IMG/VR virus record: IMGVR_UViG_3300031992_000016
Location: 1 to 64,000 of that record
Length of the DNA stretch: 64,000 nucleotides
Source of the DNA: a virus
Taxonomy: Duplodnaviria; Caudoviricetes
Reading direction: 5' to 3' (one strand)
The translations under genes were made by a program, and so were the position numbers. Shown piece by piece: positions 29,642 through 43,524 of this stretch. The first letter of the stretch is position 1; each line of letters opens with the position of its first letter. Under the pieces are notes generated by a model. That model was not told where the DNA came from. It was given only the letters and a program-made list of their open reading frames with translations, and did not search any database.

Positions 29642-29713
29642 AGGTCGGTAGTGTAATTGGTAGCACGCTAATCTCCAAAATTAGTTGTTTAGGTTCAAGT
29701 CCTAACCTTCCTG
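29642..29713 (+). tRNA. tRNA-Trp(CCA), degenerate copy
   Basis: Cloverleaf with two acceptor-stem mismatches and no encoded CCA end. Confidence 0.7.
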
Positions 29714-29718
29714 CTTAT

Positions 29719-31667: not shown

Positions 31668-32468
31668 ATGTATAATGGATACAAAGAAATTCGTGGGACC
31701 ACTGACGAAATTAATGAGCTAATGTTTCAAATGGATCCTGCGGATTGGGCAATCAATGAATATCTTATTATTCACAACACAGATGAAAATCGCACAACTG
31801 AAATGCGTTGGACTGGTTCGTAGTTTGTTGCATTAAAATTACCGCCATCTTCATATGTAAAAGCACTCAATAGTGAGCAAAGATGTTTGTTGGATTTGCT
31901 TAATAATAAAAACATTACTGTTGTTGCTGCACTTGGAACTTATGGTTCTGGTAAAACTTATTTAGCTTTACAAATGGCACTTTACGGTTTAAAAGAAAAA
32001 GGATGGTATGATAAAATCCTTGGTGTGCGCGAAGTCATTGGTGAAGGTCGAGATATTGGTTTTTTGCCAGGTGAGTAGAAAGCTAAAACAGATAATTTCT
32101 TTAAACCGTTAGAACAATAGCTAAATGGTGGAGAGTTTGAATTAGATAGCTTAGTGCGGCAAGGGCAATTAGAAACATAGATTCCTTATTTTTTAAAAGG
32201 CTGTACTTATAATCAGACTGCGATTGTCGTTGATGAAGCCGAGGACTTAACTGAAAAACAAATTAAGTTAATTGGTACTCGCGCTGGAAAAGGCAGTCGT
32301 GTTATTTTTGCCGGTGACTATAAACAATCATTAGTAAATCACACTGAGTCCAATCCACTTGTTAAAATGTGTGATGCATTGCGCGGTAACCCTCTGTTTG
32401 GATGCGTAGTATTAAAAGAGGATGTCCGTAGCGAAACTTCTAAATTATTTGCTGACCTCTTCACTTGA
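31668..32468 (+). CDS. phoH: PhoH-family ATPase with 4 in-frame TAG
   Basis: GTYGSGKT, IGFLPG, LKGCTY, VDEAEDL, GTRAG, FAGDYKQ, DVRS all in one frame across TAGs at 31821, 32076, 32118, 32178. Confidence 0.9.
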
Positions 32469-36080: not shown

Positions 36081-36102
36081 ATTAAAGAGGGGAGCGATGC
36101 AT

Positions 36103-36780
36103 ATGTTATTAAGAAAAGGAATGCGTGGAGAATCGGTTCGATAGTTACAAACACGTTTAACTGAATTAGGTTTCCTCAATAGTAAGATTGATGGAGTATT
36201 TGGTCCAGTAACTTAGAACGCAGTTATGAATTTTCAAATGCAAGCAAATTTAGGAGTTGATGGTATTGTTGGTCCAAAAACAGAAGCAGCATTAAATGAT
36301 GTGAATGCGCCGCATTATGTTATACCAACTTCAACTGCGGTTCCTGCTACTGGCACTGCGCAAATGATGGATTGGTGGAAAAGTGATATTTCTAAAATCT
36401 TTGCGCGTGGTGTAGTGGCAACTATTACAGATGTAGATACTGGCTTAGCTTGGCACGAAGTACGTAAAGGCGGCTCTAACCACGCTGACGTTCAACCATG
36501 TACTGCCGCAGATACTGCTGTATTGAAATAGGCTTATGGTGGAAAATGGTCATGGGCTAGACGCGCAATTTTTGTAACGATCAATGGTGTTAATTATGCC
36601 GCATCAATGAATGGGATGCCACACAGCGGACAATCTATTTTAGATAATAATTTCCCTGGACATCATTGTATCCACTTTACTAATAGCCGCACACATAATA
36701 CAAATAAAGTGTGTCCAGACCATCGTAAAGCTATTGAAAAAGCAGCAAAAGCAAATTTAGGTGATAATTCGGTGGGTTAA
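36103..36780 (+). CDS. PG_binding_1 domain plus putative His/Cys catalytic (L,D-transpeptidase-like) domain, 3 TAG
   Basis: LRKGMRGESVR[TAG]LQTRL...DGVFGPVT[TAG]NAV..FQ...VDGIVGPKT; C-terminal ASMNGMPH...NNFPGHHCIHF. Confidence 0.85.
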
Positions 36781-37354: not shown

Positions 37355-37447
37355 AGCCCCTTAGTTCAACGGTAGAACACCGGTCTCTAAAACCGTTATA
37401 TCCCTCTGAAGGAGGTAGTCTGGGTTCGAATCCCAGAGGGGCCGCCA
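37355..37447 (+). tRNA. Amber-decoding tRNA (anticodon CTA), probably Gln; extended variable arm
   Basis: AGCCCCT/AGGGGCC acceptor (unpaired 1:72), G73, CCA; loop CT-CTA-AA at 37385-37391. Confidence 0.9.
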
Positions 37448-37451
37448 ATCA

Positions 37452-37561
37452 TCGACACGTACAGCAAATATAAAGAGTAATCTTTATGTCATGGGTTCAA
37501 CTCCCATCCTGCACACAGTGCATGTAGCTTAGTTGGTAGAGCGAAAGAATATAAGTGTCGA
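37452..37561 (+). ncRNA. ACAGCAA-family RNA, copy 4, with circularly permuted tRNA domain
   Basis: TCGACAC/GTGTCGA stem, ACAGCAA; TCTTT/AAAGA stem, T arm 37491-37507, loop-closed acceptor 37508-37524, D arm 37527-37542. Confidence 0.85.
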
Positions 37562-37572
37562 GTAAATTTTTA

Positions 37573-37665
37573 TAGACAGCATACTGCAATGAAATATTGG
37601 ATAATATAACAGTTTTTATGCAACTATTATTAGAAGGTTCAAGTCCTTCGCTTATGCGCTGTCTA
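37573..37665 (+). ncRNA. ACAGCAA-family RNA, copy 5 (ACTGCAA variant) with isolated T arm
   Basis: TAGACAGC/GCTGTCTA stem; GAAGG-TTCAAGT-CCTTC. Confidence 0.7.
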
Positions 37666-41601: not shown

Positions 41602-41686
41602 ATAACAGGGCTGTATAAAACAGCCCTTGATTTTTTTTATTTTTTTTGATATAATATATATAGAAAATCAATAGGAGGTTCTATAT

Positions 41687-42247
41687 ATGAAAGCATATCT
41701 CGCTGGTAGTATTTTTTATCTTGGCGATAAATTTAGAAATGAATACTTCTCTTAGAAATTGCGCGAGGCTTTCCCAGATTTAGATTTATATAATCCATTA
41801 GAAAATACTGCGATTAATGATAAAACTAAATTTGCCGATGCGAGAGCTATTGCTGATGGAGACAATGAACGTTTAAACAATAGTGATATTCTAATTGCTT
41901 GTATTGATGGAGATGTATTACCAAGTGGCACATGTTCAGAAATTGGAAAATTCCATGAAAAAATTGCACGCGGCGACCATAAGTTACTTGTGGGAATTTG
42001 TACTGATACACGTCAGCAATATCTCACTCATAGTGCAGAAAAAGATAGCACATACAACGAACCCGGTGAGTGCCAATATTGTTATGAAAATCTATATGTT
42101 ACTGGACTCATTAAGCAAGCGGGCACTTTGGTAACAAATATTGAAGATGCTATTAAAGCTATTTCTATTTGGTTAGATCAAAAGGATATAAAAGCTTTTA
42201 TTAATGATTATCATACATTTTGGGAGGAAGGGTCTGAATGGCGGTAA
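41687..42247 (+). CDS. Nucleoside 2-deoxyribosyltransferase family, 1 TAG
   Basis: MKAYLAG, YNP, D..RL..SD, SGTCSEIG, NLYV.G. Confidence 0.85.
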
Positions 42248-43524
42248 ATTATTCTTTACGAGAAAAACCTCGTAATTGGAAAGACGCAATTGGTTATACT
42301 CTATAGTTTGTATTTGCGGTCCTAACCGCAACTATTTTAATCGCAACTATCTGCGGAACCAGCATCGCGGCAGGTCTCGTCGCAGCAGGTATCGGCACAT
42401 TAACTTTTTTGTGTATCACAGGTTTTAAAGCGCCAATAGTGATTAGTAATAGCGGCGCTACGGTATCTGCGGTAGTAGGTGCATTAGCTCTATCTAGTGC
42501 AGTTGAAACTAATTTCGCTGGTGTTATTTTAGGTGGCGCGGTAATCGCAGTTATTTATGGAGCAGCAGCATTGGCAATTAAGAAATGGGGCATTCAATGG
42601 TTACAGAAGCTAATTCCGCCACTAATTTCGGGGACAACCATATTAGTAATCGGTATTACATTGGCTGCATTTATTCCGACATACGCACTTGTGGGTGGCA
42701 GCTATTCGTTATGGGGCATCCTTATTGCGGGGATTACAGCAATAACCACAGTTCTGTGTATGCATTATGGGAAGAGCTTAGTCAAGACAATGCCTTTCTT
42801 AATTGGTTTGCTAGTAGGGTACATTGTCAGTTTTGTCCTAACTTTAACAAATGTTGCTCCATTAGTCAACATGGACGCATTGAAGATTTCAAGTGTCTTT
42901 ACTGTTCCCCAATTTGCCTTCTTGCAAACGAACTTCAATACTTTCGATTGGTCAGCTCTACCGCAAATCATTCTCTCATTTGGAATGGTAGCACTTGCGG
43001 CAATGACTGAGCACATTGGAGATATGACGACTGCTTCTGCTGTAACTGGATATAATCTATTAGAAACTCCTGGTTTGCATCGCACATTACTTGGTGATGG
43101 CGTAGGTAGTTTAATGGGTACTATTGTTGGCGGATAGCCCAATACCACTTATAGTGAATATACTTCTACAATGGCAATTAGCGGAGTTTATAGCACTTGG
43201 TACACATTATATACTGCTATTGTTTTAATCGCACTTGGTTTTATTGCACCATTTAATGCTTTCTTAATGGCATTACCTAATGCGGTATTTGCTGGTGTAT
43301 CAATAGTAGCATATGGTATGATTGCTCTTGCTGGTTTGCGCACTATTGTAAATGCAAATATTGATTTTAGCAATAGTAAAAATCAAATTATATTTGCGGC
43401 AATGGTAACAACCGGATTGAGTGGTTTAGCAATTACATATGGAGCATTTAATTTAACAGGCATTGCGCTTGCAATGATTGTCGGTGTGCTATTGAATGTA
43501 ATTTTAAAAAATAAGGGAGAGTAA
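42238..43524 (+). CDS. NCS2/UraA-family nucleobase permease, 2 TAG
   Basis: L[TAG]FVFA (conserved TM1 Gln), EHIGD, PGLHRTLLGDG, GG[TAG]PNTTYSE, YGMIA..G.R. Confidence 0.9.

Follow-up and report, generated by a model that had tools for sequence, protein, structure and literature searches.

The window, meaning the whole stretch of DNA that was analysed (64,000 nucleotides), covers the leftmost 64 kb of a phage genome that is complete at 168,960 bp and has direct terminal repeats. The window contains an array of 33 tRNA genes, every one on the + strand, and the phage has its own ordinary tRNA-Gln(CUG) and tRNA-Gln(UUG). The complete genome has a single CUA tRNA, identified by ARAGORN at positions 37355-37447. 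ARAGORN labels this gene "Pyl", a label that derives from the anticodon alone. The Rfam tRNA model (RF00005) matches the gene with 55.8 bits (E = 3.1e-11), which is above the gathering score of 29, and handles 20 nt of the variable region as an insertion. The gene is composed of the following features.

37355-37447, + strand: entire 93-nt tRNA gene, including its encoded CCA end (ARAGORN; Rfam RF00005, 55.8 bits)
37355-37361, + strand: 5' strand of the acceptor stem, AGCCCCU, which pairs with 37437-37443; A1.C72 is unpaired (sequence)
37364-37378, + strand: D arm of class I type, with a 4-bp stem, a 7-nt loop (AACGGUA) and G10 present (sequence, Rfam)
37380-37396, + strand: first anticodon arm (ASL1), with the stem CCGGU/ACCGU and the loop CUCUAAA at 37385-37391, CUA being at 37387-37389 (sequence, ARAGORN, Rfam)
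37397-37398, + strand: linker UA that joins ASL1 and the second arm (sequence)
37399-37415, + strand: second anticodon-type arm (ASL2), with the stem UAUCC/GGAGG and the loop CUCUGAA at 37404-37410, CUG being at 37406-37408 (sequence, conservation, covariation)
37416-37419, + strand: 4-nt tail UAGU, 5' of the T stem, of class I variable-loop length (sequence)
37420-37436, + strand: T arm, composed of CUGGG, UUCGAAU and CCCAG (sequence, Rfam)
37437-37447, + strand: 3' strand of the acceptor stem, AGGGGCC, followed by the discriminator G73 at 37444 and CCA at 37445-37447 (sequence)

ASL1 is in the canonical position, one nucleotide 3' of the D stem (A26 alone separates the two arms), and its CUA lies within a canonical 7-nt loop. 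The 23-nt variable region (37397-37419) pairs as UAUAUCC/GGAGGUA, with one A.G mismatch, and closes the 7-nt loop CUCUGAA. This loop differs from that of ASL1 by a single base. The ASL2 stem is composed of five stacked pairs (U.G, A.G, U-A, C-G and C-G), and the U and A of the tail are able to pair with the linker, which extends the second arm to seven pairs. The last U of the tail is position 48, the partner of A15. An earlier note, made from the sequence alone, had described the anticodon loop CUCUAAA, the 23-nt region, its TATATCC/GGAGGTA pairing and the loop CUCUGAA at 37404-37410. All of these held, and the coordinates are correct.

The minimum-energy structure given by RNAfold is not a cloverleaf, and it draws the hairpin in another register, CCUCU/GGAGG, with a 3-nt loop. 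This register was rejected because covariation in relatives supports the 7-nt-loop register instead. The GGAGG in the 3' strand of the hairpin resembles a Shine-Dalgarno sequence; this likeness was also set aside, since the motif is not conserved and reads GCAGG, GUGGG or GCCGA in relatives. One criterion of class II tRNAs, a variable region of at least 10 nt that forms a hairpin, is met (23 nt, with a stem backed by covariation). The other, a Ser/Leu/Tyr-type body with a small arm loop, is failed: the D stem is 4 bp, the D loop is 7 nt and the arm loop is 7 nt.

Immediately 3' of the suppressor tRNA, at 37466-37572 and 37520-37658, there is a sub-threshold Rfam match to YrlA (Y RNA-like; 32.4 bits against a gathering score of 69, E = 4.9e-5) together with a weak tRNA-like match that includes a 66-nt insertion. 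Elsewhere in the array, the first of two tRNA-Trp(CCA) genes (29642-29714) lacks the encoded CCA that most other tRNAs of the array have, and its acceptor stem is imperfect.

When TAG is read as sense, long frames open across the minus-strand late region, at 82-165 kb of the genome. There are 332 in-frame TAGs in 23 late ORFs of at least 250 aa, and one ORF alone contains 103. Pfam and PHROG domains cross the TAGs in the PhoH-like ATPase, the xanthine/uracil-type permease, the peptidoglycan-binding endolysin, the nucleoside deoxyribosyltransferase and the portal protein. The recoding also extends beyond the late minus-strand block, to four genes among or beside the tRNA genes (31668-32468, 36097-36780, 41627-42247 and 42238-43524). 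In these, the PhoH-like ATPase has 4 TAGs, the peptidoglycan-binding endolysin 3, the nucleoside deoxyribosyltransferase 2 and the xanthine/uracil-type permease 2.

The meaning of TAG was determined from a codon-level alignment of the likely large terminase (TerL), in which 40 of 80 fetched relatives were aligned. The likely TerL is the 578-aa ORF adjoining the portal gene; its PHROG matches carry no functional name. TAG occurs in 49 columns, where the partner residue is Q in 571 of 1728 cases (33%), compared to a background of 3%. Seven columns contain 7-18 TAGs each and are otherwise 100% Q. The likely TerL gene of this phage has five TAGs, two of which fall in Q/TAG or Q/TAG/K columns. TAG encodes Gln in this phage. 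The PhoH alignment is ambiguous on the amino acid because its four TAG columns are variable. We conclude that the gene at 37355-37447 encodes the functional amber suppressor with which this phage reads late-gene TAG as Gln, though its charging with Gln and its suppression of UAG in cells are inferred. A phage-encoded GlnRS or GluRS was looked for in the complete genome and none was found, and no PylS was found there either.

Relatives of the tRNA were retrieved from IMG/VR by exact search with the 17-nt ASL1 sequence. This search is blind to the variable region, and the retrieval is independent of the second hairpin because the anticodon arm alone was the query. It returned 44 viral loci, which deduplicate to 28 distinct tRNAs with a long region, besides a few that are short or have a long region of another kind. 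The sequences were re-anchored on the second loop, since in several rows MAFFT places the hairpin one base out of register. The consensus of the second loop is C32 U33 Y34 U35 G36 A37 A38. U33, U35 and G36 are kept in all 28 relatives, and a pyrimidine, C or U, occupies position 34, so that every triplet is one of the two Gln anticodons, CUG or UUG. The second loop is as conserved as the T loop: pairwise identity is 87.5% in the second loop, 88% in the T loop and 85% in the D loop, and it is 51% in the acceptor stem, 55% in the D stem and 65% in the second hairpin's own stem.

The second stem keeps its pairing through compensatory changes. Its loop-proximal pair is C-G, the second pair is CG, GC, UA or AU, and the third is UA, CG, GC, UG or AU. 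The covariation score of the stem is 0.517, compared to 0.185 in shuffles (0 of 500 as high), and slid registers reach at most 0.256. In the subfamily of the 37355-37447 tRNA, the linker and tail can supply two more pairs, and pair 7 is paired in 15 of 20 members.

A wider sample, obtained with a 15-nt core of the anticodon arm, gave at least 111 distinct CUA tRNAs, of which 52 are short and 59 are long. About 51 of the 59 long tRNAs have a CUG or UUG second loop (46 by motif match and 5 by eye), so that roughly half of all CUA tRNAs sampled with this core, long and short together, carry the second hairpin. Gapped patterns with 15 specified bases gave mostly chance matches, and only tRNAs were retained after ARAGORN filtering. 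As a control, 68 Ser, Leu and Tyr tRNAs from the same loci were searched for their own anticodon motif in the variable arm, and it was found in none (0/68). The second hairpin is thus beyond chance, as shown by the conserved loop in a blind retrieval and by these controls.

Some long CUA tRNAs (L018, L465, L498, L506, L509, L512 and L514) have variable arms without a Gln-type loop, and the D arm of L018 is of class II type. It is possible that these are amber suppressors derived from Ser, Leu or Tyr tRNAs. Related phage contigs also encode class I tRNAs of 84-92 nt (Lys-UUU, Thr-UGU, His-GUG and Ile-UAU) that have a hairpin in the variable region. The long-armed class I tRNAs on these contigs are at L361:3829-3912, L388:3787-3873, L370:2542-2625, L031:527-612 and L024:2437-2528. 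The arm loops of these Lys, Thr, His and Ile tRNAs do not present their own anticodons.

The body of the tRNA bears GlnRS identity marks known from E. coli, namely G73, a weak 1:72 pair, G2:C71 and G10. In the amber family, G73 is found in 38 of 43 tRNAs, G2:C71 in 32 and G10 in 39; the 1:72 pair is weak or mismatched in 41 of the 43 and is never G-C. The earlier note had called the acceptor Gln-like from its unpaired 1:72 and G73, and this held: A1.C72 and G73 are present in the 37355-37447 tRNA, and G73 and a weak or mismatched 1:72 pair are common in the family. Position 3:70 deviates, being C-G in 33 of 43, unlike the G-C of E. coli tRNA-Gln. The full YUG anticodon is absent from the decoding loop, which has A36 (CUA), and is found only in the second hairpin. 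Position 38 of this mimic is A, compared to C in the phage's own tRNA-Gln genes. The Levitt pair 15:48 covaries, with A:U in 35 and G:C in 2 of the amber-family tRNAs, which indicates that the L-shape is retained.

Each molecule is composed of two nested canonical cloverleaves on one shared junction, as shown in silico. When the first arm and linker of the 37355-37447 tRNA are skipped, ARAGORN reports a canonical 74-nt tRNA-Gln(CUG). When the second arm is skipped, a canonical suppressor tRNA remains. In both the amber family and the opal family described below, the 5' half (acceptor, D arm, nucleotide 26 and first arm) is of fixed length. Between the second loop and the T stem there are 8-10 nt, mostly 9, which corresponds to a 5-nt stem strand and a variable loop of about 4 nt. 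On its 5' side, counted with the 5' stem strand, the second loop is flanked by a segment that ranges from 3 to 11 nt across the family. An origin by tandem duplication of the anticodon arm fits the nested cloverleaves and is plausible. The two stacking models have identical helices, so that secondary structure does not discriminate which of the arms lies under the D stem.

Were the hairpin a substitute for the cognate anticodon, a CCA loop would be expected in UGA suppressors that insert Trp. A pattern search for a UCA tRNA with a CCA hairpin in this arrangement found ~25 tRNAs. To remove circularity, UCA tRNAs were retrieved by the anticodon arm alone, which gave 29 distinct contexts. The retrieval comprised 4 non-tRNA contexts, 4 short tRNAs, 4 Sec-like tRNAs and 18 Trp-like tRNAs. 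The 18 distinct long Trp-like tRNAs have a Trp-like body, with A1-U72 and G73, and all 18 present the Trp anticodon in a hairpin loop of the form N-U-CCA-A-N, usually CUCCAAA or GUCCAAA. The second stem of the opal tRNAs is 5 bp and is 95% paired, with a covariation score of 0.82 compared to 0.20 in shuffles. The opal second arm is often a near-copy of the natural tRNA-Trp anticodon arm, of the form xxGGU-CUCCAAA-ACCxx. When the first arm is skipped in one opal example (L397), ARAGORN reports a tRNA-Trp(CCA). The 4 Sec-like tRNAs in the same retrieval have unrelated long arms. Viral UCA tRNAs at L442, L455, L456 and L461 have long acceptor-type stems and long variable arms without a CCA loop and are tRNA-Sec-like.

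At several opal loci, reading frames open up once TGA counts as a sense codon. A small alignment of several loci pairs TGA with W more often than with any other residue (18 of 55), and two of its columns are W throughout, though the sample is thin. The tail sheath gene at L453:5384-7663 has four in-frame TGAs, of which two fall in F/Y/W columns and one in a Gly column (56 of 60 homologs). The single-gene test in L453 is therefore mixed, and the multi-locus test favours Trp, on thin evidence. Published surveys report that TGA is Trp in such phages (10.1101/2021.08.26.457843). With one test mixed and the other thin, the assignment of TGA to Trp rests mainly on those surveys.

The bins that hold contigs with such tRNAs (Faecalibacterium, Oscillospiraceae) encode GlnRS. 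A Lachnospiraceae bin also encodes GlnRS, but the pattern match there is not a tRNA. The closest proteins to the phage PhoH are from Lachnospiraceae. The earlier note had left the charging enzyme as either GlnRS or a non-discriminating GluRS with GatCAB. We judge GlnRS to be the likelier because the metagenome-assembled genomes with such contigs encode GlnRS and the phage has no GlnRS or GluRS. This is an inference, and the host assignment comes only from binned contigs and protein similarity.

Catalysis by GlnRS and TrpRS is strongly anticodon-dependent, and Gln and Trp are the amino acids to which phages reassign stop codons. The CUA anticodon is without G36, and the UCA anticodon is without C34. 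We propose that the second arm is a surrogate cognate anticodon for the host GlnRS (or TrpRS), with the first arm decoding the stop codon. This is an inference, without aminoacylation or suppression data for this tRNA, and our confidence in it is moderate. In this model, the first arm (CUA) would decode UAG on the ribosome from its canonical position. The second loop, C-U-[C/U]-U-G-A-A, would be bound by the anticodon-binding domain of the host GlnRS and would supply the G36 determinant that is missing from the CUA anticodon. The predicted outcome is a suppressor that is charged efficiently and specifically with Gln.

The synthetase would bind a form of the tRNA with the second arm under the D stem, and the ribosome would use a form with the first arm there. 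This arm exchange is the simplest geometry because both arms share one junction and each completes a canonical cloverleaf. In the alternative geometry, the fold would be static and class-II-like, and the enzyme would contact the second arm in the manner of a long variable arm. When a class I synthetase such as GlnRS binds its tRNA, the variable region points to the solvent, so a static long arm would be hard to fit into the anticodon pocket. Arm exchange may thus be the more workable of the two. Both the recognition of the second loop by a synthetase and the stacking position of each arm are inferred.

Several points count against the surrogate anticodon. The arm-swap geometry has no precedent. 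The 7-pair arm, with pair 7 paired in 15 of 20, favours a stable class-II-like arm over a 5-pair mimic of an anticodon arm as the resting state. Arm-less CUA suppressors exist (the 52 short tRNAs and the copies in phAss-1-like phages), and the second arm is therefore dispensable for amber suppression as such. Further points are A38 in the mimic, where the phage tRNA-Gln has C, the C-G pair at 3:70, and a host assignment that rests on bins and protein similarity alone.

The earlier note had offered two readings of the extra arm, a surrogate identity element for the synthetase or a relic of the duplication that created the suppressor, and had named a loop unconserved in homologs, together with no effect of mutation on charging, as refutation. 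The comparison of homologs was run, and the loop is conserved, with U35 and G36 invariant and C or U at position 34. The surrogate reading is supported, with independent support from the CCA hairpins of the opal tRNAs, although any effect on charging is inferred. As to the relic, a duplication origin is plausible; a functionless relic does not fit the conservation and covariation.

A bolder reading is possible, in which these are two-faced tRNAs whose two arms exchange the canonical stacking position on one junction. The synthetase would see the Gln anticodon CUG or UUG, or the Trp anticodon CCA, and would treat the tRNA as a cognate substrate for charging, and the ribosome would see the stop anticodon. 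If this were true, it would be a general, naturally evolved uncoupling of tRNA identity from decoding.

One rival explanation is a dual decoder, which we consider unlikely. Here the molecule would basically be a tRNA-Gln(CUG) into which a stop-reading hairpin has been inserted. Either arm could enter the A site, so that a single Gln-charged tRNA would read both CAG and UAG. The second arm would be kept for decoding and not for the synthetase. In its favour, skipping the first arm yields a canonical tRNA-Gln(CUG) or tRNA-Trp(CCA) cloverleaf, and the 3' half, from the second arm through the roughly 4-nt variable loop to the T arm, is fixed in length and class I-like. Against it, the phage already encodes ordinary tRNA-Gln(CUG) and tRNA-Gln(UUG), so extra decoding of CAG adds little. 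The synthetase must still see the sense anticodon, which makes this explanation overlap with the surrogate anticodon. It also needs the ribosome to accept a 17-nt hairpin at the 26/27 junction, which is unestablished.

Another binding partner is likewise improbable. The loop could be recognized by an anticodon-loop modification enzyme or by a phage protein that times late translation, or it could be a decoy for an anticodon nuclease. Conservation of the loop shows selection and not which partner is involved, and related phages carry the further class I tRNAs with long variable hairpins. However, in two separate families the loop corresponds to whichever amino acid the stop codon has been given (Gln for UAG, Trp for UGA). 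This match is predicted by a role in synthetase identity and is unexpected for a nuclease decoy or a timing factor. The long-armed Lys, Thr, His and Ile tRNAs do not carry their own anticodon in the arm.

A neutral relic, in which the suppressor arose when its anticodon arm was duplicated internally and the copy now has no function, is very doubtful. The two loops are one base apart (CUCUAAA and CUCUGAA), and the opal second arm is a near-copy of the tRNA-Trp anticodon arm, both of which would fit a relic. However, the loop is as conserved as the T loop while the acceptor and D stems are at 51-55% identity, the stems stay paired by compensatory changes, and the arrangement is kept in two families.

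Excision of the hairpin or first arm, or its cleavage after transcription to leave a one-armed mature tRNA, is a remote possibility: it has no direct support, Rfam finds no intron-like family or ribozyme match over the gene, bacterial machinery that removes a variable-region hairpin is not known, and the 15:48 covariation fits an intact L-shape. An identity other than Gln for TAG, with the gene being a genuine class II tRNA for Ser, Leu or Tyr or a tRNA-Pyl, is all but ruled out; the long variable region, the G73 shared with tRNA-Ser and the ARAGORN label speak for it, and the Q columns at TAG, the class I D arm and the lack of a phage PylS speak against it, though it is possibly true of L018, L465, L498 and L509. 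The tRNA-Pyl identity was rejected on the absence of PylS from the complete genome, a variable region of 23 nt and not 3, and the Q columns.

The tRNA shares several features with the known amber suppressors of TAG-recoded phages: the CUA anticodon, a phage tRNA array, TAG-recoded late genes, no synthetase encoded by the phage, and a host GlnRS that presumably does the charging. A second hairpin or Gln-type loop is not mentioned for those suppressors in the open-access literature searched. The E. coli suppressors supE (tRNA-Gln CUA) and su7 (tRNA-Trp CUA, charged by GlnRS) likewise have CUA, G73 and a weak 1:72 pair. GlnRS accepts supE and su7 through U35 and the marks at the acceptor end. These tRNAs are single-armed and are charged more poorly from the loss of G36, whereas the 37355-37447 tRNA keeps a G36-bearing loop elsewhere in the molecule.

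The class II tRNAs (Ser, Leu, bacterial Tyr and Sec) also have a hairpin between the anticodon and T arms, and they share the principle that a synthetase may recognize the variable arm in place of the anticodon. For SerRS, the long variable arm is an identity element (PMC7609411). The class II arms have small loops and no anticodon motif (0/68), whereas here a 7-nt mimic of an anticodon loop sits on a class I body of Gln or Trp type. The operator of the E. coli thrS mRNA and the tRNA-like structure of TYMV are anticodon-arm mimics that are bound by the anticodon-binding domain of a synthetase. Those mimics lie in an mRNA or at the end of a viral genome and serve regulation or replication; this one lies inside a decoding tRNA, beside a different working anticodon. 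In aptamer-tagged allo-tRNAs, a variable-arm hairpin carries a protein-binding module and amber suppression is retained (PMC7590224). They are synthetic, with coat-protein aptamers on allo-tRNA bodies, unlike the natural phage tRNA.

No description of the second hairpin was found in the open-access literature searched, which included the phAss-1, recoded-phage survey, zeta-crAss and theta-ribozyme suppressor-tRNA papers, a 2025 screen of 213 phage suppressor tRNAs and a review of non-canonical tRNAs. Subscription journals were not covered, so a prior description is not excluded. On how host enzymes charge such tRNAs, the survey preprint (10.1101/2021.08.26.457843) offers merely that "host synthetases are susceptible". 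A conserved hairpin that displays the cognate anticodon is a concrete and testable answer, and it covers both known reassignments, UAG to Gln and UGA to Trp. If true, it would be a new kind of tRNA identity element and would explain the choice of Gln and Trp for stop codons, their synthetases being anticodon-dependent. It would also permit better isotype calls for phage suppressor tRNAs and provide a natural template for engineered suppressors that stay good substrates of anticodon-reading synthetases.

The published phage phAss-1 (OQ749652) encodes a two-armed copy of the tRNA that is annotated merely as tRNA-Sup-CTA. Directly 5' of it is an arm-less CUA copy (L463:210-281 for the arm-less form and 288-375 for the two-armed form). 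Among 73 loci with a two-armed CUA tRNA, 9 have an arm-less CUA tRNA a few bases upstream. The arm-less and two-armed forms in phAss-1-like phages may possibly serve different enzymes or different stages of infection.
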